Assembly: GCA_002269645.1 (NCBI GenBank) | Contig: NIVC01001356.1 | Coordinates: 186,001 to 250,000, forward strand | Direction: 5' to 3' | Length of the DNA stretch: 64,000 bases | Source of the DNA: Macrostomum lignano | Lineage: Eukaryota | Shown here: piece after piece, positions 436 to 61,357 of the stretch | Numbering within the stretch: position 1 is the first letter of the stretch | Layout: each line of letters begins with the position of its first letter | The notes under the pieces: model-generated | Told to the model about the DNA's origin: nothing | What the model saw: only the letters and a program-made list of their open reading frames with translations | The model's database searches: none | Translations under genes and position numbers: made by a program

Positions 436-19591
<19,156 letters not shown>

Positions 19592-20249
19592 TGTTTGTTT
19601 TGCTTCTTTTAAGCAGATGCTAATATAAACACAAATCCTCTAGTAGTTTGCTAAAAAGAAGAAATCAACCCGATCCCTTATGCAACAAAGCGAGTTGTTA
19701 GAGTTGTGCACTGAGCTGGCAATCCCCCATTTTTATCCATATGTCCCAACAGTGTATCCGGGTACTGGCGTACTGAATCTCTCCCCAGTTTCTCTCCCCT
19801 CCCTTCCCTTTCTCTCAGCCTCCCTATAGCGCCATCCCTGCCTCTTAGCCAATCCACTTTGCTGGCTGGGGCGCATTGTGAAAGGGGTCAGGGCTGCACT
19901 GAATAACTCTGCAGCCTTAAGCACTGATGCTGCTTATAGGTTGTCCAAGCAGAAAGCAATTGTCTGATTGCCTGTTTATTGTCATCAGTTGCTGCACTTG
20001 CAACCCTACTGTAGTACATAATAGCTCTGCTCAAGCATTCAACATCGCCTTTTTTGGGATTGAGATGATTAACGCACAATATTCGCATGTAGTTCACTCA
20101 GCGAATCGATTAAGGGTTCCTGAAACTGTGGAAGGTTTTCGGCTCAGGGTTGGTAACAGGCCATTATATACCGGGTGATATAGGAAGGATATCGGATGAG
20201 ATAGGGAGCATAAAGGGTTAGACAGGAGAGACAAGTGAGAGACAAGAGA

Positions 20250-20815
20250 ATGGGTGAGACAAGAGAGATACCGGATAAGACATGAGAGATACCGGGTGAG
20301 ACAAGAGAGATACCGGGTGAGACAAGAGAGATACCGGGTGAGACATGAGAGATACCGGATAAGACATGAGAGATACCGGGTGAGACAAGAGAGATACCGG
20401 GTGAGACATGAGAGATACCGGGTGAGACAAGAGAGATACCGGATAAGACATGAGAGATACCGGATAAGACATGAGAGATACCGGGTGAGACAAGAGAGAT
20501 ACCGGGTGAGACATGAGAGATACCAGGTGAGACAAGAGAGATACCGGGTGAGACATGAGAGATACCGGGTGAGACAAGAGAGATACCGGATAAGACATGA
20601 GAGATACCGGGTGGGACAAAAGAGATACCGGGTGAGACAAAAGAGATACCGGGTGAGACCATACAGAAGAGATACCGGGTGAGACCATACAGAATAGATA
20701 CCGGGTGAGACCATACAGAATAGATACCGGGTGAGACCATACAGAATAGATACCGGGTGAGACCATACAGAATAGATACCGGGTGAGACCATACAGAATA
20801 GATACCGGGTGAGAC
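20250..20815. repeat. 21-bp and 26-bp related minisatellites (GATACCGGGTGAGAC core)
   Basis: Visible. Confidence 0.92.
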
Positions 20816-21460
20816 AAGGTTGAGAGATACTGCATGGGTTTAAAAATGAGAGATACCGGGTTGAATTGAAACAGGGGAGATACCTGTGAATGAGAGAAAC
20901 TCCGATAAAACAAAGACCAGTGCAAAACAGTAAAAGTACATATACATACATTTTACACGGTAATTTCAAAGATCGTATAATATGGGAAAGAAATTGGCTC
21001 AATCAAGACAATTTGCAGTCTGCTCTAACTTGAGGTGTTACAGTGCCAATGAGAAGGAATTGTAGCTAGCTAGTGCAGAAGACTGTGAAGCATCAATAGA
21101 GAAATCCTACAGAGTGCTAGACGACGCGCCTTAATTCTCTCGAGCATATAGGGGCTAAACTGCATTTTTCTACTGATGCATGGTTGAATATTGTATACGC
21201 TTGGTTAATTAGCAAACTAATTAATGAGAAGCAATTAGCAGCAATATTTGCGGTACTTATGACTTATGGTTGAGTGAATTTAATGGTATTTACGATCTAC
21301 ACGTGTAGATATGTAGATACACATATATGGAATTAGAATTTGTACGTGTAGGTAGGAATTCAGGTCGTCAGCTCTACATTCAATTACATGTAATAGGGGG
21401 ACAGTGTATTGTTGGTTGTGTGTGGCAATGCTGCATACAATCAAATGTTTCATGTAGGTG

Positions 21461-22031
21461 TCAAATGTTTTAGAATAATGTGTTGGGGGGGTGTGCCCCT
21501 CTGACTATGATCGTTGATGTTTCTGTTGAATCAAATAAGTCGGAGGTTCGATTTGTTTCTCTCGATCTCTAACCTTCAACAAGATGTTTATTACTAATCA
21601 ATGTTAGTAGCAATTCCTAATAGGATATTGATCACGCAATTACGCAAATTTGTTAAGCAATTCAGTGAAAATGGAGCCACAGGCTACTTATCGATATTGT
21701 TGCACGAATTGACGTTTGTCCGGATTTATCTCTGTTAAATCGGGATATTAGAGTTCAGGCCCGATTGTTGGGGCAAGCTAGCGGAGCAGTTGAGGAGGCA
21801 AAGAGGCGGAGACCCGAGAACCGGGAAAAACTGGAGAGAGGCTTCATTCTCACTGAACGCTAGTATATATATGATTTCTATAACGCATTTCATTGGTGTT
21901 CGCTTCACGCAATAGGATCTTTACTGGTGCACAAGCATGTGCTGTACTTTCCTGATAGAGAAACCTTCTGAAGTTCGCATTAGACTAAAAAATAACATTG
22001 GGCATAACATGCTTAAATTAAGATCACTTCA
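21461..22031 (-). repeat. 3' LTR
   Basis: Direct repeat of 28514-29084; preceded on the minus strand by GTGAAATAAGGGCAA (PPT-like, 22032-22046). Confidence 0.93.
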
Positions 22032-22712
22032 TTGCCCTTATTTCACAAAGCGAAGGCCCACCGAGCGGCATAAGCAAAAGAAAACAGGTGTTGGATTATT
22101 AGTGAAGTTGTAACTAATGCTACTTGCATACGAGGCGCAAGGTGTAGGCTAGAGAAAGTGGATAAAGTGGTGAGTAAAATGGTGAAAATAAGCATAGAGC
22201 ATGGCTTAGGAAAGGGTCTTAAATATTAGAGTAAAGCTGTTGAAACCAAAGTTAAATGAACAGAGGAATAGCAAGGAGGATAAAATAAGTTTCAAAAGTG
22301 GCTTATTAAAGGGTTTGCTAAAACAGACAAAGACAGATAAAACAGAGAATTTTCAGATGGACGAAAATAGGCAACAAGTAAAGTTAGAGGTATAAATAAA
22401 ATTGAGTAAAGGACAGTCAAACGAAATTGAGATTATTAAAGAAACGACTGGGACGCAAGGTGAAAAAGAAAGCTATTTTTAATCAAGGGTGTGGAATGTA
22501 CATTGTACGTGGGGTCGAAGAGATTATTGGCTTGGGGTGGGTGTTCGTAGAGCGCGTGAGTGTACACTGAAGCTAATTCAAAGGAAAGGATGGAGTCGCG
22601 TGGTATAAATAAGATAAAAAACGATAGGGAGGGAATTTTCTAGTTCAGGTTTTGTCCGCAATTGTTTTTAAGTTTCGATATAGCTCGTTTATCATTCAAG
22701 TTAGATTAGTCA

Positions 22713-22967
22713 ATGGCAGGTCTGTCTTTGGGAAGAGAGCAAATTACAGAGATCGCGGCTGGTATTCTCCAGGGGCGTCACGCGTATTTCATTTCCATCA
22801 GCGCGGTCGTCGCCATCATGCTGCTGCTGCTGTTACTGCTAGTGGCGGCGTTTGTAGCCTGCTGTTGTTGCTGCAAGTGTTGTTGCTGCTTTGGCGGCTG
22901 CAGCCGCTGTTGTCGCGCACCATTGCGGCCCGCTGCAACTGCCCGTGTCCAGGAGACTGCGGTGTAA
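22713..22967 (+). CDS. Putative 84-aa single-pass membrane protein with juxtamembrane Cys cluster, antisense within the LTR element
   Basis: ATG...TAA; about 26-aa hydrophobic segment followed by CCCCCKCCCCFGGCSRCCR; TATAAATA at 22604-22611; AATAAA near 23453 and 23489. Confidence 0.5.
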   Translation: MAGLSLGREQITEIAAGILQGRHAYFISISAVVAIMLLLLLLLVAAFVACCCCCKCCCCFGGCSRCCRAPLRPAATARVQETAV

Positions 22968-23788
22968 CTGCACAGTTGGTCTGCCAAGTCTTCTGCGTCC
23001 TTTGGGCGCCAACGTCAAAACGGCCTTTTTCAAGGCCACCACGTGTCAGATAGTGCTGTTCGTCTTAGTTTTGTTGCAGCCAGTAGGGTTTCTGTAGTCA
23101 GGCCGGTGTCGTAGTTCGTAGTTAGCCGTAGTTGTCGGTAGCAGGCATGTATTCTGTTAATTCTGAGCATAGCAGGTTGTTTCCAAGTAGTAGATAGGGC
23201 TGGGCAGTGGGCCGGGTTGGTGTTGAACAGAGTCGAAGCTGAATTTCGGTCAGGGCAGCGTGTAGAGCCGGATTGCAGTGTAGAGCGGGACGGCTGTGTA
23301 GATCCGGGTAACGCGTGGTCTTACAAAAGACCGAATAGGGATTATGAGGTGACGAAAGAAAAGATCATTGAGTTCACGTGGGTGAGCAAGAGTAGAGAAG
23401 ATGGTTCTGATAAATTTTTTCAAGGGTGAGTGATAGTAATTAAAGGTAAGCAAATAAAATGTAGGGCTAAAGCGTTTGACGACAACAGAATAAAACAAAA
23501 ATTTTGATAAGAGTGTTGAGAACTGACATTTCTACTGTGAGTAGCAAAAGAGTAGCGTATTGTCAAGGAAATTATCTAACGAAGATAGATAAGTTGAAGC
23601 GGAAAATGATAAATTGCGATTTAAGAGGAAGAAAGATATAATATATAATTATAAAACTAATAGAAATAATATAAACGGAAATAATTTTCAAAACGTATCG
23701 ATAATCAACTGTCCATCGATAATCAACTGCCGCGTATTGATTCACACATCCCGTGAGCGCAGATGATATCGCACAGCTGGAATAGGTT

Positions 23789-26566
23789 CTAGTCCGTGCT
23801 GATCACGAGTGTCAGGCTCATCCACGACGTCAGTCTGAGTAGCGTGATGCTGTGCCAGTGGCGGGTGGTGGTCGAAGTGAGTCTGTGGTATCGATGATGT
23901 GAAGTTCGGCAGATTGAGTTCCAGATTGATTTATAGCGTTTCATGTTGTCAAAGGTTTTCTCAATAATGCAGCCTTGAGATGAATAGCTACAGTGTGCCA
24001 TGGAGAAGGCTAACGATTCCATTGGTTTGCTAGGAGAGGCGAAAGCTATTATCCCTTGTATGAGTGTTGAAACTATTTGAGTTCGTGCCTTGCGATGGTA
24101 ACAGTCTTCGAGGAAGGAGGTTCCTGTATTGGAGCGAGAGATTTTGTAGTTTCCAGTGGTGGCAACCAGTTGAAGCTGACCATCAGGTGAGTTATATGAT
24201 TCGGTCCAATGTTGGCAATCTTGTGCGGCGACTGTAAGTGGGCGTAAGGTTACGTACGCATCACGGAGAGAGCGCAGAACCTGGCTCATTGGGAGGCAAT
24301 TAACCGAGATTTCCTCACGGAAGCATAAGCTGACTGGTGTTCTGGTTTGCTCCAGGTTAGTAGAGTAGAGCTGTAAGTGCACTGGTGTCGTAACGTCCTG
24401 TGACGACGTGAACTGTTCGCATCTGATCTGCTGAGGAATCTTGAAGATGCGCACGGGTCCATCTAATGGACAGAGCATTGGTGTGTCCACGTAGAGTGGA
24501 TGTTGCTTAGGATTCGATGGCAGTGGTGTTGTCTGCACCGTCGGGAATAGCGATAGCCAGATGAGTGTCACGAGAAGCGTCGTTAGACCAGTTAGTCGAC
24601 GTCCTTTCTGCTGAGACAGTGGTCTTTTTACGTGTACCTGCTGTCGCTGGGCACGTAGCATATCTTTTCTTAGCTTTGGTTGAGCGGCTGATAGCGTAGT
24701 GTACGGTTGAACGTGGATGACTGACAGTGTAGATGGACTGTCGCGGATTAATTTCTTAAACTGCCTGGTCGAGCCATGGAACTTGTACTCAATTGGTCTG
24801 TCCAAAGCATAGGTTGGAGTAGCCGTTGATTTTGACACAGGAACCTCAGTGAGACGCTGTGGAGCACTGGGTGTGCTGTTCGGTGGCACAATTTGTTGAG
24901 GCGAGTCCATAGTCGGCAGTTGTGGCATGGGGTCGTTCGAGACAACCTGAATTGAGTTTACACCGGCTGCAGGAGGGCGCGGTGACGGTGTTCTGGAACG
25001 TCCGTGGTTTGGTGAATCAGAGTGGCGTTCCCGTTGATATCGTTGAGTGGGGTTGCGCTGAAATTGTACGCGCCGGCCTAGATTATACCGCTGTGGGTTA
25101 TTGTTTGTTGTTCTCCCCTGTTTAATATCGTGTAGGGTACGACATTCTTCGGTATCATGGGTGTCCGAGTTGTGAAAGTGGCAGTATTTGGCTGGAGAGC
25201 CTGTGTCTCGGCTGCGAGGATCATCGGAGCCTCGTCTGTACCGGTCTTGAATCGGTTGATTGCGTGTCCACTTAGAGTCAGCCTGTCTTGGTTGTCTAGC
25301 ATTGGCAGTTTGTTGGCGTGCATTTCGAGGATCCTGGTAGCATCGATCTGTTGTGTGTCCAATCCTGTGGCAGAATTTGCACGTTGGTGGTTCTCTAGTA
25401 TTGCTAGCGCCTTGAATAGCCGCTACTATTGGCTTGGGCTTGATGGTTCCACATTCTAAGGCAGCAAGGCGTTTTTCTATATCGGCCGGAACGTTGTTTG
25501 GGGCCGTTAATTGTGAAGACTGCTGTATTTGTTCAAGGCGAATGGCCTGGTTGAGCAGCTGTTGTTCGGTATTCAGCGGGTTTCGCAGTAGTTCAACGCG
25601 AAGGTGAGGTAGAGCGCCACTTAGTATATGGCCGATCAATGTTTTGTTAAACATTTCATTTCGTTGGTCAATGACCGCTTGGTTAGCCGGTGCATTTTCG
25701 CCATCCACGGGTGGTAGTGGCGAGACTTCTGGGTAAATGGCACGAAGTTTGCGGCGAATGTCCGTGTAGTACTGGATGAATGGCTCACCCGGGAGTTGTC
25801 GGCGGTTGGCGATGTGATGTAGTGCCGAAGTGGATCCGAGAGTGAGTACCGCTATTCTGTCGGACAGAGACCGAACTAATTGGGTGTAGTCATTTTGTGT
25901 CTCGGCGGGTAGAGCGGCATATTCGATCTTTAGGAGATCGTTGAGGAGCCGAGGAAAGATGCGAAGCTTTGAGTTTTCATCTAGATTAAAAGTTCTCGCT
26001 GATAGATCATACTCCATGATGAAAGAGGCAAAATCATGAAGTTGATCTATCTCCTTGAGACCTTCGCGGATCTCGTTGATGGTACTAGCTGGGATTGCAG
26101 CGTGTGGTCTTTGTTGATCTCGCACAGCATTGATAAATTGTTGCATTAGTGCTTCTGCCATTGTAACGTTGCTCTCAGTTTCCTGGATATTGGCGTTATT
26201 TTGATTCAAATGATCAGGTTGCAGAAGTGGCTGTGGAGGATTTTGTTCTTGTTGCTGCTCGTACAACTCAGAAGGTTGTTCTTCGTCTCTGGTGCCGATG
26301 GCAGTGTTTTCTTGATGGAGGCCAGGTAGATGGCAAAATGTAGCTGGGGTAGCTGTTTGTGTTAGTTGCTGTTGGGTGTCGTCAGTATGGTGTCCTCCAA
26401 TGCCAGTAGAATGTCCACCAATACCAGTAGAATGTCCACAAATGCCAGTAGAATCACCAGAAATATCAATAGGATTTTCAGCGACACCGGCAGAATTTGG
26501 TGTGGATATTGCAGGCGGCTCTTGTTGTTGTTGTTGTCCGAGTTGGGTACCAGAACGCAATTTCAT
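23789..26566 (-). CDS. 925-aa Gag-(linker)-signal peptide-viral glycoprotein-like fusion; Env part appears truncated
   Basis: MKLRSG start; Gypsy capsid-like core (RRQLPGEPFIQY); zinc knuckles CKFCHRIGHTTDRC (25340-25381) and CHFHNSDTHDTEEC (25142-25183); no D(T/S)G, YxDD or integrase motifs; hydrophobic LTTLLVTLIWLSLFPTVQT at about aa 660-680; then a Cys-rich domain (PMLC, DCQHW, SPDGQL, HCSYSSQGC). Confidence 0.85.
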   Translation of the reverse strand: MKLRSGTQLGQQQQQEPPAISTPNSAGVAENPIDISGDSTGICGHSTGIGGHSTGIGGHHTDDTQQQLTQTATPATFCHLPGLHQENTAIGTRDEEQPSELYEQQQEQNPPQPLLQPDHLNQNNANIQETESNVTMAEALMQQFINAVRDQQRPHAAIPASTINEIREGLKEIDQLHDFASFIMEYDLSARTFNLDENSKLRIFPRLLNDLLKIEYAALPAETQNDYTQLVRSLSDRIAVLTLGSTSALHHIANRRQLPGEPFIQYYTDIRRKLRAIYPEVSPLPPVDGENAPANQAVIDQRNEMFNKTLIGHILSGALPHLRVELLRNPLNTEQQLLNQAIRLEQIQQSSQLTAPNNVPADIEKRLAALECGTIKPKPIVAAIQGASNTREPPTCKFCHRIGHTTDRCYQDPRNARQQTANARQPRQADSKWTRNQPIQDRYRRGSDDPRSRDTGSPAKYCHFHNSDTHDTEECRTLHDIKQGRTTNNNPQRYNLGRRVQFQRNPTQRYQRERHSDSPNHGRSRTPSPRPPAAGVNSIQVVSNDPMPQLPTMDSPQQIVPPNSTPSAPQRLTEVPVSKSTATPTYALDRPIEYKFHGSTRQFKKLIRDSPSTLSVIHVQPYTTLSAAQPKLRKDMLRAQRQQVHVKRPLSQQKGRRLTGLTTLLVTLIWLSLFPTVQTTPLPSNPKQHPLYVDTPMLCPLDGPVRIFKIPQQIRCEQFTSSQDVTTPVHLQLYSTNLEQTRTPVSLCFREEISVNCLPMSQVLRSLRDAYVTLRPLTVAAQDCQHWTESYNSPDGQLQLVATTGNYKISRSNTGTSFLEDCYHRKARTQIVSTLIQGIIAFASPSKPMESLAFSMAHCSYSSQGCIIEKTFDNMKRYKSIWNSICRTSHHRYHRLTSTTTRHWHSITLLRLTSWMSLTLVISTD

Positions 26567-28502
26567 GCAATGATCTGTGGAATGGGTTTACTTCGAGTGG
26601 TCTTGCAATTAAGAGTTGAAAATAATTCGCAATTTTGTAACAATAAAGATTTGAAATAGCGTGAAGCAATAGCATCTGAGCGTGATTTGCGGTCATCTAT
26701 CCAGGGTCAGTTTTTTGTTTTATATAAGCAAATTTTCAATATGTAGAGCTTCGGTAGCTGTAGTATCAATTATCAAAAGTGTGAGTTTAGAGCAATTTTG
26801 AGCAAGTGTTGAACAGTTGTATAAAGTAGAACTGAGTAGAGTCGGCTGATGCGCCTGTACTAATTATAATATAGCTCAGCGGTGGAGCGGTTAAAATATT
26901 TCATAGAAGCAGCAAGAAAAGCTGAGCCTCATCCTTGGATTGAGTTTGATTAGAATTTGAACAGATTTCGGTAGAAGATTCAGCGGAGGCGGCAATGTGC
27001 GCGTTGATTGATGCCTTTGAGATTGAACGGATTGGCGTTGAAAACTCAGCTGGTGAGTTGTGGTTAAGATGCCAGCGGATGTGGCGATGCGTGTTGAGTA
27101 CGCGATTTGAATTTGTTGTAAAAGGAACGAAAGAGACTCTGCAGAAGTCTGTGGAAGCAAGGCAGAGGCGTATGAGTGGCGTGCCAAAACTTCAAACTTG
27201 GAACACGATGAGCATGAACCAAGCACCAGTCCTGGGTTTAAGTGTGTAATTGACAAATAGATTCGGCCGACTAAAATAGAATTATTATTACCTGAAGGCA
27301 GGTGTAGAGGTCCTGTGTATAGGACAAATTGCCGCGGGCTTATCGCTGCTAATCATGAAGAAATGATGTGGCTGCTTGAAATTGAGAAACAAGGAATAGG
27401 GAATAGGAGAGGGTGGGTAGCAATCACAGCGTAATTTTTATTTTGTTTTGAGAAATTTTGAACGACTGCGAAGGCTAAAGGGCTGGTGTATGGGTAGACG
27501 AGGGTGGTAGGTTGTACTTTGCGGAGAAGGAAAGCGGATTGTAGTATAAATAAGAGCTTGGGACGGAAATTATTCCCATTAGAGAACAATGGGGGTTTCT
27601 GATGGGAAAGCCCAAGGAGGGGGAGCAGCCATTGAAAAAAAATGAATTCCCTGGGGTAAGAGAAGATTGAGAGTACTGAGAGTGTCGCACCGGTGTGACA
27701 GAATCATTCTCCCTCACTTTCTATCCCTGAGGATGAGAATTGCAGCGGAGAGAAGAGCTGGAGCGGATCACAGCTGAATTGTGGTAGGGCGTTGAGCCAA
27801 CTGAGTGAGGCGCGGAGCCGATAGGGCGTTTTAGCCAACTGAGTGAGGCGAACTGAGGCCAGTTGAGGCTGGTTTGTGAACTGATGCAGACCGGAATGGA
27901 ACTAGAATTTCCAGAAGACGAAAAACGATGCAGATCTGCTGTGAACCAGCCGGAGTAAAGGCGGAATTCTCCGGACGAGAACTGGTTTTGCGAGGCTAAA
28001 AATAGAAAAAGGATTGAGACAATGCTGGTTGCCTGGTTGGGATTTGTCGCCCAGGCAGGATATTTATAGAACAGAGTGAGATTGTGGAGAAAGAGCAAGG
28101 TGAACTTGACGTTCTTTGAGGTGAGGCGAGCAAAGTACTCGGAGAAAGTATATCAGAAGGGCGTAAATAGTGGGAATGGGTGGATTCCCATCGGAACCGG
28201 TTTGAGGACTGGTTCGCTGCTGGTTCTCCGAAGCGGGAGAGCGATTAGAGGTTGTAAATTTAAGAACATTAAATAACACTAATCTTTTCTACGATTCTAC
28301 AGCTTGGGAGAATCATACACGTAGTATTTTTGTAGTTTTGCAAATTGTATTGGTTTTTATATTTTGTAATTTTTTAATTTTTATATTTTTTACTGACCCT
28401 TTCTAAGATGCCATCACTAGCTCATAGCCAGCTCCACGGAGGTGTTCACCCCAGCATATTGAAGCCGGGCATGTTGAAGGAAATTACGGAGAGAAACAAG
28501 GT

Positions 28503-28512
28503 CGGGGAGCCA
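28503..28512 (-). promoter_or_regulatory. Primer-binding site TGGCTCCCCG, complementary to the tRNA-Asp(GTC) 3' end
   Basis: 1 nt after the 5' LTR. Eukaryotic tRNA-Asp ends ...CGGGGAGCCA; 10-nt match. Confidence 0.75.
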
Positions 28513-28513
28513 G

Positions 28514-29084
28514 TCAAATGTTTTAGAATAATGTGTTGGGGGGGTGTGCCCCTCTGACTATGATCGTTGATGTTTCTGTTGAATCAAATAAGTCGGAGGT
28601 TCGATTTGTTTCTCTCGATCTCTAACCTTCAACAAGATGTTTATTACTAATCAATGTTAGTAGCAATTCCTAATAGGATATTGATCACGCAATTACGCAA
28701 ATTTGTTAAGCAATTCAGTGAAAATGGAGCCACAGGCTACTTATCGATATTGTTGCACGAATTGACGTTTGTCCGGATTTATCTCTGTTAAATCGGGATA
28801 TTAAAGTTCAGGCCCGATTGTTGGGGCAAGCTAGCGGAGCAGTTGAGGAGGCAAAGAGGCGGAGACCCGAGAACCGGGAAAAACTGGAGAGAGGCTTCAT
28901 TCTCACTGAACGCTAGTATATATATGATTTCTATAACGCATTTCATTGGTGTTCGCTTCACGCAATAGGATCTTTACTGGTGCACAAGCATGTGCTGTAC
29001 TTTCCTGATAGAAAAACCTTCTGAAGTTCGCATTAGACTAAAAAATAACATTGGGCATAACATGCTTAAATTAAGATCACTTCA
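28514..29084 (-). repeat. 5' LTR (TGAAGTG...CATTTGA in element orientation)
   Basis: Direct repeat of 21461-22031; followed on the minus strand by the PBS. Confidence 0.93.
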
Positions 29085-29249
29085 GGTGACAATTCAATTA
29101 ACTGCATGTGGGAAACTATATGCGGGCAGTGTGTGTAGCTTGCTTGCATCTCAGGCCGGGGCTCCAACCCGCTGTGATTTTTTATTGGGTAAGGCGCTCT
29201 GCCTGTGTAAGTGCTGTATGCATATAGTGCCGCGTCTTGGGGGATTTCA

Positions 29250-30045
29250 TTTTGGGGGTATTTCATTTAGCTGGCGATGGGTAATTCCATCTTGGGGTAT
29301 TTTGGGGGTATTTCATTTAGCTGGCGATGGGTAATTTCATCTTGGGGTATTTTGGGGGTATTTCATTTAGCTGGCGATGGGTAATTCCATCTTGGGGTAT
29401 TTTGGGGGTATTTCATTTAGCTGGCGATGGGTAATTTCATCTTGGGGTATTTTGGGGGTATTTCATTTAGCTTGCGATGGGTAATTCCATCTTGGGGTAT
29501 TTTGGGGGTATTTCATTTAGCTGGCGATGGGTAATTCCATCTTGGGGTATTTTGGGAGTATTTCATTTAGCTGGCGATGGGTAATTCCATCTTGGGGTAT
29601 TTTGGGGGTATTTCATTTAGCTGGCGATGGGTAATTCCATCTTGGGGTATTTTGGGGGTATTTCATTTAGCTGGCGATGGGTAATTCCATCTTGGGGTAT
29701 TTTGGGGGTATTTCATTTAGCTGGCGATGGGTAATTTCATCTTGGGGTATTTTGGGGGTATTTCATTTAGCTGGCGATGGGTAATTTCATCTTGGGGTAT
29801 TTTGGGGGTAGTTCATTTAGCTGCTGGCGATGGGTAATTTCATCTTGGGGTATTTTGGGGGTAGTTCATTTAGCTGCTGGCGATGGGTAATTTCATCTTA
29901 AGGTATTTTGGGGGTATTTCATTTAGCTGCTGGCGATGGGTAATTTCATCTTGGGGTATTTTGGGGGTATTTCATTTAGCTGCTGGCGATGGATAATTTC
30001 ATCTTGGGGTATTTTGGGGGTATTTCATCTTGGGGTATTTTGGGG
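29250..30045. repeat. 50-bp minisatellite GTAATTCCATCTTGGGGTATTTTGGGGGTATTTCATTTAGCTGGCGATGG
   Basis: Period 50 (29281, 29331, ...); later units are 53 bp. Confidence 0.95.

Positions 30046-60529: not shown

Positions 60530-61357
<828 letters not shown>

Follow-up and report, generated by a model that had tools for sequence, protein, structure and literature searches.

An antisense membrane-protein gene with a predicted histone-type 3' end in gB-Env Ty3/gypsy retroelements of Macrostomum lignano

The stretch of DNA analyzed here, hereafter the window (64,000 nucleotides [nt]; Macrostomum lignano assembly GCA_002269645.1, contig NIVC01001356.1, positions 186,001 to 250,000), carries a GAG-ENV-POL Ty3/gypsy element with an envelope protein (Env) of the herpesvirus glycoprotein B (gB) type, an element of an already known kind. 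On the plus strand and opposite to gag, a short open reading frame (ORF) lies in the 3' region of this element, past the end of pol (about 23742) and ahead of the 3' long terminal repeat (LTR; 21461-22031). A previous sequence-only reading of the window had proposed an antisense mini-gene at this site, and every feature it described was found where it had been placed: the TATA box (TATAAATA, 22604-22611), the ATG at 22713, a frame of 84 codons and AATAAA hexamers at 23453 and 23489. The encoded protein also has the composition it reported, with an uncharged run from residue 24, 12 cysteines in residues 50-67 and basic residues thereafter. The results presented here indicate that this frame is almost certainly a real protein gene, and that it is followed, 54 nt after its stop codon and on its own strand, by a stem-loop like those that end histone mRNAs (Table 1).

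Relatives of the element were sought in genome G000 through Env, which gave 148 matches; 20 of these were fetched, 18 reaching the 3' region. Eight further copies of the window element (family A) show 98-100% identity, and the env genes of related families are 69% (B), 55-57% (D), 36% (E) and 30% (F) identical to that of A. At the matching site, these four families also present antisense ATG frames with a membrane segment, cysteines and basic residues. The frame is intact in 8/9 family A copies, the remaining one having a 1-nt deletion, and the differences among siblings within it amount to four synonymous and four codon-changing sites. It is open in 16 of the 18 family D loci, two of which run past the usual stop and through the stem-loop, in one of three family B loci (in a short form), in 8/14 family E and in 4/4 family F loci, and it is present in all nine of the more distant E-type loci examined.

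The ratio of non-synonymous to synonymous substitution rates (dN/dS) is 0.08-0.31 in family D, where 14 of 15 pairs could be computed, and 0.11-0.38 in family E (8 of 10), the remaining pairs being saturated and the pairs not being independent of each other. Gap events are multiples of three in 3/3 cases inside the D frames vs 13/53 outside. A null filter, defined after the frames had been seen, required an ATG frame of 60-130 amino acids (aa) with a hydrophobic segment followed by cysteines and at least three Lys or Arg residues. This filter was passed by the antisense strand of 5/9 family 3' regions vs 0/9 for the sense strand, by 0-2 of 300 shuffles per region under two types of shuffling, and never, on either strand, in the remaining 56,230 nt of the window or in 28,884 nt of host flanks. 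The conservation of the frame and its dN/dS across copies and relatives had been proposed as a check on the mini-gene, and the mostly intact frames, the purifying dN/dS (0.08-0.38 overall) and the shuffles bear out that it exceeds chance and is under selection.

The sequence-only reading had itself cautioned that such a frame could arise by chance from CAG/CAA-rich sequence or reflect a Gln-rich sense frame. Poly-Gln host sequences do yield Leu-rich antisense frames, as in a set of weak protein hits that were dropped as poly-Leu by-products (L038-L044, L046), and the sense frame that shares its wobble positions with the gene is open across it in 5/6 D alleles. That sense frame, however, has one stop in A, one in B and three to six in E, where the explanation fails, and it is disfavoured in D by the pattern of codon positions: first positions vary more than second ones in 12/15 D pairs, as they do in 9/10 E pairs, which is the expectation for the antisense frame and the opposite of that for the sense frame. 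The ATG, the TATA box, the stop codon and the stem-loop all lie, moreover, on the antisense strand, and shuffled sequences pass the filter very rarely. The by-product explanation is therefore already largely refuted, and we assign it next to no probability.

A family F protein is present in NCBI (PAA87975.1), and the annotation apparently behind this record is described as using stranded RNA and removing weak antisense models (PMC5730564); the record constitutes indirect support for transcription, for family F only. Word-based protein searches with two alignments (A1 and A2) returned one protein each, identical to family F copies, and no homologue outside the host. The Env profile retrieved a single Macrostomum polyprotein, and a metagenome scan with Env gave no match. 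Assembled contigs of eight runs (seven presumed to be RNA and one of unknown type) cover the element without strand, start or end information; no listed contig piece has its end at the stem-loop, and the loose ends located at 22819-22890 derive from unrelated CAG-rich sequence.

The stem-loop is the best match of the Rfam Histone3 family (RF00032) in the whole element (E 2.2e-5, 29.7 bits), the stem-loops of host histone genes scoring 31.9-33.5 bits and those of families B and D 28.3-31.3 bits. It was found on the strand of the gene in 9/9 A, 17/18 D and 3/3 B loci (29/30), 47-88 nt after the stop codon in intact copies. The hairpin common to these three families has 114 exact matches in G000, and a reversed control pattern has none; among the 30 matches examined, 16 end host H2A, H2B, H3, H4 or H1 genes, 11 correspond to the elements described here and three fit neither group. 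Further host features accompany the hairpin, namely the 5' flank, ACCA after the stem and GAT(G/A) 12-13 nt downstream (11-14 nt in hosts, 17/20). The fifth pair of the stem is C-G in host genes, family B and most of family D; one lineage of D has U-G, and family A has U-A. It is the only covarying pair (one compensatory base pair). An SLBP domain is encoded by the host, with nine matches over the cut-off, and U7 small nuclear RNA was not found in the host with RF00066. Upstream, the TATA box of the family D gene lies at -82 to -115; no histone-specific promoter motif is common to A, B and D, and the reverse CCAAT box listed in Table 1 for the window copy is not common to families B and D.

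Several side observations concern these structures. The nine SLBP matches (in G000 contigs C130, C732, C2024 and others) score equally and lie each in a 232-codon open frame, suggesting a multi-copy, apparently intronless gene. At L173, L186 and L200, exact histone stem-loops have neither a histone nor an element gene in front of them, the one at L173 reaching 36.3 bits and hence exceeding the Rfam line. A second histone-like hairpin, fully paired and with a non-consensus loop, maps to 23317-23332 on the minus strand, that is, in the sense or genomic RNA; it is present in 8/8 sibling stretches and was not seen in other families.

Histone mRNAs with a stem-loop end are cut after it by SLBP and the U7 small nuclear ribonucleoprotein (snRNP), carry no poly(A) and increase about 35-fold in S phase. 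Some of them make use of a downstream poly(A) site as well, and histone mRNAs have been called the only known cellular mRNAs with a stem-loop instead of poly(A) (PMC5100578). By analogy, the antisense mRNA is likely to be a non-polyadenylated, S-phase-restricted transcript of about 410 nt, processed by SLBP and U7. The AATAAA sites had been listed among the features of the gene, but they are probably not its main 3' end, because the histone-type stem-loop precedes them by about 430 nt; AATAAA hexamers are also weak evidence by themselves (68 in the window vs 55 +/- 6 expected).

The predicted proteins measure 67-116 aa, with an N-terminus of 23-30 aa, one membrane segment and amphipathic stretches. 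Membrane topology is, as a rule, inferred from the distribution of charge. All eight proteins analyzed carry a net charge of +3 to +5 after the membrane segment and of -1 to +1 before it, from which an N-out/C-in orientation is predicted in 8/8 cases. Three to five Lys or Arg residues lie within the 15 residues that follow the segment, and the juxtamembrane cysteines are candidates for palmitoylation. The C-terminus reads ETAV in family A, ETEV in B and ES(A/V)V in 10/16 D frames, S/T-x-V being a class I PDZ motif, and the tails of E-type proteins carry YxxL, a motif with a sorting role. The MGxxxS/T myristoylation motif is absent from all eight proteins, and there is no cysteine pair in the ectodomain: the focal protein starts with MAGLSL and has no cysteine before residue 50, and the family B protein has Gly2 and no Ser or Thr at position 6. 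On these features, the product is likely to be an accessory factor that spans the membrane once, is palmitoylated and has a PDZ-type tail.

Profile and structure comparisons gave weak signals. Pfam yielded only faint matches to the membrane segment, including one to Orthoreo_P10 (E 0.15) in one of ten members, and the nearest look-alikes according to a language model, all of them weak, were host SMIM5/22 (0.90), influenza B NB (0.86) and coronavirus E (0.85). The AlphaFold model of a family E protein is one long helix (pTM 0.28). The N-terminus of E and F proteins has a heptad pattern with a 7-residue indel, and one family E protein is modelled as a homotrimeric coiled coil, with a score of 0.68 vs 0.18 for the best of three controls, agreement between runs of at least 97% of contacts and pLDDT of at least 80. 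In the calibration, 21/30 solved pairs and 0/23 single chains from microbes attained this mark, as did 7/16 animal pairs, and the three copies of the trimer job are unlike that calibration. In the integrase tree, A/B/D and E/F occupy separate, well-supported clades, with gene-less families beside them.

The alleles of the gene have an unusual distribution. Elements of family D share 91-100% identity in pol and over most of the 3' region, whereas the unit running from the TATA box to the stem-loop is only 62-86% identical in most pairs. Four-fold degenerate sites differ by 0.13-0.59 in the gene vs 0.05-0.09 in the integrase among four elements, with many transversions. The two halves of the D frame have, moreover, different closest partners, one pair being 99% identical over the first half and the others 63-91%. 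In a similar vein, families B and C have pol sequences 97.5-98.7% identical and unrelated 3' regions, C lacking the gene. This pattern points to old alleles that have been retained and exchanged by recombination, as a cassette. RNA editing was rejected as the source of the divergence island in D in view of the frequent transversions, and local hypermutation is disfavoured by the mosaic pattern.

The element in the window was described in the sequence-only reading as having a broken Env, for which the antisense protein might stand in as an alternative fusogen or membrane accessory protein. The premise holds for the window copy only, because the approximately 5.7 kb missing at 23922/23931 are present in 8/8 siblings, and replacement of Env is therefore rejected; what stands of the proposal is a gene for a small, single-pass, Cys-rich membrane protein. 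Four of the eight siblings have a single open gag-env-pol frame of about 2,860 codons, the other four carrying frameshifts, and their order is gag, signal segment, Env, membrane segment, protease, reverse transcriptase (RT), RNase H, followed by integrase. The pol domains thus follow the gypsy order (as seen in sibling L026, the region being deleted in the window copy). A profile of ten Env halves matches herpesvirus gB in the PDB (Epstein-Barr virus gB, E 6e-10), and a single-sequence PDB search with Env gave no match; PF24664 was matched in 10/10 Env members. A 4-bp target-site duplication flanks all eight family A copies that have both ends. In the middle of Env (about 1900-2450 of L026) we also observed a long mucin-like stretch rich in Thr, Ser and Pro, which is flanked by two furin-type basic sites and lies just ahead of the gB central helix.

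Table 1. Features of the retroelement and of its antisense gene, in window coordinates.
Feature	Position	Strand	Remarks
Reverse CCAAT box	22526..22532	+	Commonest 7-mer upstream of host histone genes (14/23); generic motif, weak evidence
TATA box of the antisense gene (TATAAATA)	22604..22611	+	109 nt before the ATG
Antisense ORF, 84 aa	22713..22967 (stop included)	+	23-aa N-terminus, transmembrane segment, 12-Cys cluster, basic residues, C-terminal ETAV
Histone-type 3' end	23010..23042	+	Host-like 5' flank, 6-bp stem and 4-nt loop (23022-23037), ACCAC; predicted cleavage near 23042
Candidate histone downstream element, GATAG	23049..23053	+	12 nt after the stem; GATG/GATA at 11-14 nt in host histone genes
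Two AATAAA hexamers	23453..23494	+	Possible back-up poly(A) signals for read-through RNA
3' LTR	21461..22031	-	99.65% identical to the 5' LTR
Remaining C-terminal tail of pol and stop	23742..23922	-	
Deletion junction	23922..23931	.	5,742 nt lost internally (remainder of env plus protease, RT, RNase H and integrase); found in the window copy only
gag with two Cys/His knuckles, continuing in frame into the signal segment and the N-terminal part of a gB-type env	23931..26566	-	Truncated by the deletion
Primer-binding-site-like stretch, TGG start	28501..28512	-	One base after the 5' LTR; same in 9/9 copies
5' LTR (TG...GA)	28514..29084	-	99.65% identity with the 3' LTR; 4-bp target-site duplication (29085-29088, 21457-21460)

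The explanation that we consider best overall, with about an even chance of being correct, is that of a conserved, selected antisense gene of a gB-Env Ty3/gypsy element, which has a histone-type end, is likely expressed as an S-phase mRNA and is predicted to encode a membrane protein that probably helps to position or time the Env-dependent exit of particles at the cell membrane. Its steps can be postulated with different degrees of confidence. RNA polymerase II would quite probably start about 30 nt after the TATA box and SLBP and the U7 snRNP cut just after ACCAC, leaving an RNA of about 410 nt without poly(A), with the AATAAA sites acting as a back-up for read-through RNA. According to the known behavior of histone-type 3' ends, an mRNA made from this TATA promoter would be stable and translated mainly in S phase, and in a flatworm the cells concerned are stem and germ cells. 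The early stop at the stem-loop would also limit the overlap between sense and antisense RNAs to about 0.4 kb. The protein would then probably sit N-out/C-in with a palmitoylated cysteine cluster, and its C-terminal class I PDZ-type motif would tie it to cortical or junctional scaffolds. The weakest step, drawn by analogy and put forward only tentatively, is that the protein might act as a coronavirus-E-like accessory factor, organizing the budding or the cell-to-cell hand-over of enveloped particles in dividing cells, where insertions are inherited. More broadly, and with comparable reserve, it might be speculated that an animal endogenous retrovirus has coupled an antisense accessory gene to the histone mRNA pathway, which would confine its membrane protein to stem and germ cells in S phase and let it steer or police infection there, with old allelic specificity types being traded between elements as a cassette.

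A number of results weigh against this explanation. The focal RF00032 score falls below the 34-bit gathering line, as do the scores of families B and D and of the histone genes of the host; GATAG stands at the focal downstream position where the host usually has GATG, and the focal 5' flank scores 5.5 bits vs 12.6-18 in family D. Families E and F have the antisense membrane gene without a stem-loop, several of their loci presenting AATAAA 85-290 nt after the stop, and homology between the A/B/D and E/F proteins is unproven, the hhalign match (38%) covering only the membrane segment. Broken copies occur in families A (1/9), D (2/18, besides the two overrunning the stop), B (2/3) and E (6/14), mostly through 1-nt indels. 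The gene was not found in the Env-bearing families C, G and H (0/8 loci), nor in two E/F copies, L058 (with a deletion over the site) and L059, and it must hence be dispensable. Four of the 16 D frames end in A-A-V, which is not a class I PDZ motif. Finally, old recombining alleles would suit a role in recognition or exclusion at least as well as that of a budding helper.

It is mainly this allele pattern that places close behind the accessory role a rival in which the same gene, with the same timing, encodes a superinfection-exclusion or rival-blocking factor, which resident copies would place in the membranes of dividing stem and germ cells to keep particles of their own or of competing families from entering or fusing, with the alleles as specificity types. 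A putative promoter independent of the LTR, the divergence island from TATA box to stem-loop with its transversions and mosaic halves, and the near-identical pol but unrelated 3' regions of B and gene-less C are all congruent with such a factor; so are the heptad indel and the homotrimer model of family E, in which a membrane-anchored helix could serve as a fusion decoy. Nevertheless, the amino acids are under purifying rather than diversifying selection, and the trimer model is that of a family E protein, not of the focal one, the outside part of which has only 23 aa. On balance we consider this rival unlikely, if worth keeping in view. The remaining protein-based alternative, ranked third and rather improbable, is the FAST-like protein suggested by the sequence-only reading, here a cell-cell fusogen akin to reovirus FAST or sORF2 proteins that would link a dividing carrier cell to its neighbor as a second route beside Env. 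Its size, N-terminus, single membrane segment, juxtamembrane cysteines and basic patch do match the published layout (10.1101/2025.03.14.642691, PMC12945298), and the faint Orthoreo_P10 match lies in the same direction. That layout is, however, generic, as the weak resemblance to SMIM5/22, influenza B NB and coronavirus E illustrates, and both the myristoylation motif and the ectodomain cysteine pair are missing. In addition, 105/105 insect sORF2 candidates are sense-oriented and the elements studied lack env, whereas the gene described here is antisense and Env is kept. The small single-pass architecture, basic patch, cysteines, predicted N-out/C-in topology and an ectodomain in the range of about 20-40 aa agree with the FAST group, and membership of the focal protein in it is unproven.

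A further possibility, to which we give very little weight, is that the RNA itself matters, a short S-phase-timed antisense transcript damping or timing element expression or soaking up SLBP. Retroelement antisense RNAs can act as regulators by way of double-stranded RNA (PMC7264820), and the stem-loop is conserved where the non-coding sequence near it can barely be aligned between A, B and D. On the other hand, synonymous sites have changed almost to saturation while the residues are conserved, which denotes selection on the protein, and because of this a role of the RNA is conceivable as an addition but not as the whole story.

With respect to known systems, gB-type GAG-ENV-POL errantiviruses have been reported from Platyhelminthes, Nematoda and Bryozoa (PMC13524379), and these HSV/gB-type elements resemble the one described here in the order of pol (protease, RT, RNase H, integrase), the position of a gB-type Env between gag and pol, the LTRs, the primer site and the presence of several recent copies. 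The main text of that report does not mention antisense, accessory or small ORFs, and the single Macrostomum row in its table differs from family A in primer site and LTR length. Antisense ORFs are known from Grande (gene23), RIRE2, Retand and Boty, and an antisense promoter from HTLV-1 (PMC7264820). The focal gene agrees with them in position, orientation, a putative promoter of its own, indicated by the TATA box, and retention in most copies, being conserved between pol and the 3' LTR and under selection. Those examples come, however, from plants and fungi, and the characterized ones are nuclear proteins, whereas here an env-bearing animal element encodes a small membrane protein with a histone-type end. 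With replication-dependent histone genes (PMC5100578) the gene shares a TATA box, the lack of an intron and a 16-nt stem-loop 47-88 nt after the stop (62-123 nt in host genes), as well as the 5' flank, ACCA after the stem and GAT(G/A) 12-13 nt downstream; it differs in encoding a non-histone membrane protein and in its antisense location within a mobile element.

The sORF2/FAST-like proteins of MDG1-group retrotransposons and the reovirus FAST proteins (10.1101/2025.03.14.642691, PMC12945298) likewise combine small size, a short N-terminus, one membrane segment, a basic patch and palmitoylatable cysteines, and some sORF2 proteins are also devoid of a myristoylation motif. The focal gene departs from them in its antisense orientation, putative promoter of its own, retained Env, missing N-myristoylation motif, 12 cysteines and PDZ-type C-terminus. 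Coronavirus E (PMC6537279) presents a short N-terminus, a membrane segment, juxtamembrane cysteines (palmitoylated in E, predicted to be so here), a C-terminal PDZ-binding motif and an accessory relationship to a large fusogen. It shows no detected sequence homology to the focal protein, being only a weak feature look-alike (0.85).

Hence the element type, antisense ORFs between pol and the 3' LTR (PMC7264820) and small membrane ORFs of retrotransposons are already known. No report of the antisense membrane-protein gene itself, nor of a retroelement gene with a histone 3' end (10.64898/2026.10.14.759114 included), was found in the literature, bioRxiv supplements and the 2020 catalogue of LTR elements of the species lying outside the search. 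A selected mobile-element protein gene with a histone end provides a direct test of whether the histone pathway has other clients and of whether parasites use this cell-cycle switch. If the prediction is correct, a pathway said to be reserved for histones would have a viral client in this gene, and the gene suggests how an enveloped retroelement, with its LTR promoter unchanged, could direct its activity to stem and germ cells that are dividing. Genes with a histone-type end would, moreover, escape poly(A)-based annotation, which fits the fact that the only database protein found belongs to the poly(A)-type family F. Given that the likely host is a model animal ready for transgenesis, tests are practical.

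Some additional observations were made on the related loci and on the window. Members of families E and F (L060, 4969-5727 on the plus strand; L059, L057, L135 and L141) present an extra sense ORF of about 250 aa, some 350 nt after pol, without a Pfam match. In family C, L048 and L049 lack the region from protease to RNase H and have a weakly hydrophobic antisense frame of 81-83 codons. Nested, decayed LTR clusters (L156-L161 and L167-L168, in G000 contigs C272, C2421 and C1405) harbor several E-type mini-genes 7-9 kb apart, many of them open. In L203 (G000 C725, about 91700-92000), a family D gene has decayed, showing several stops and numerous changes that resemble G-to-A. A 58-aa frame with a signal-like start and nine cysteines (L063, 1811-1987) lies near the end of a family G element and probably belongs to host flank. 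In the window itself, tandem repeats with 20-, 21-, 50- and 4-nt units fill 5228-8000, 18496-18840, 20168-20860, 29249-30030 and 60574-61040, and account for most of its other long frames.

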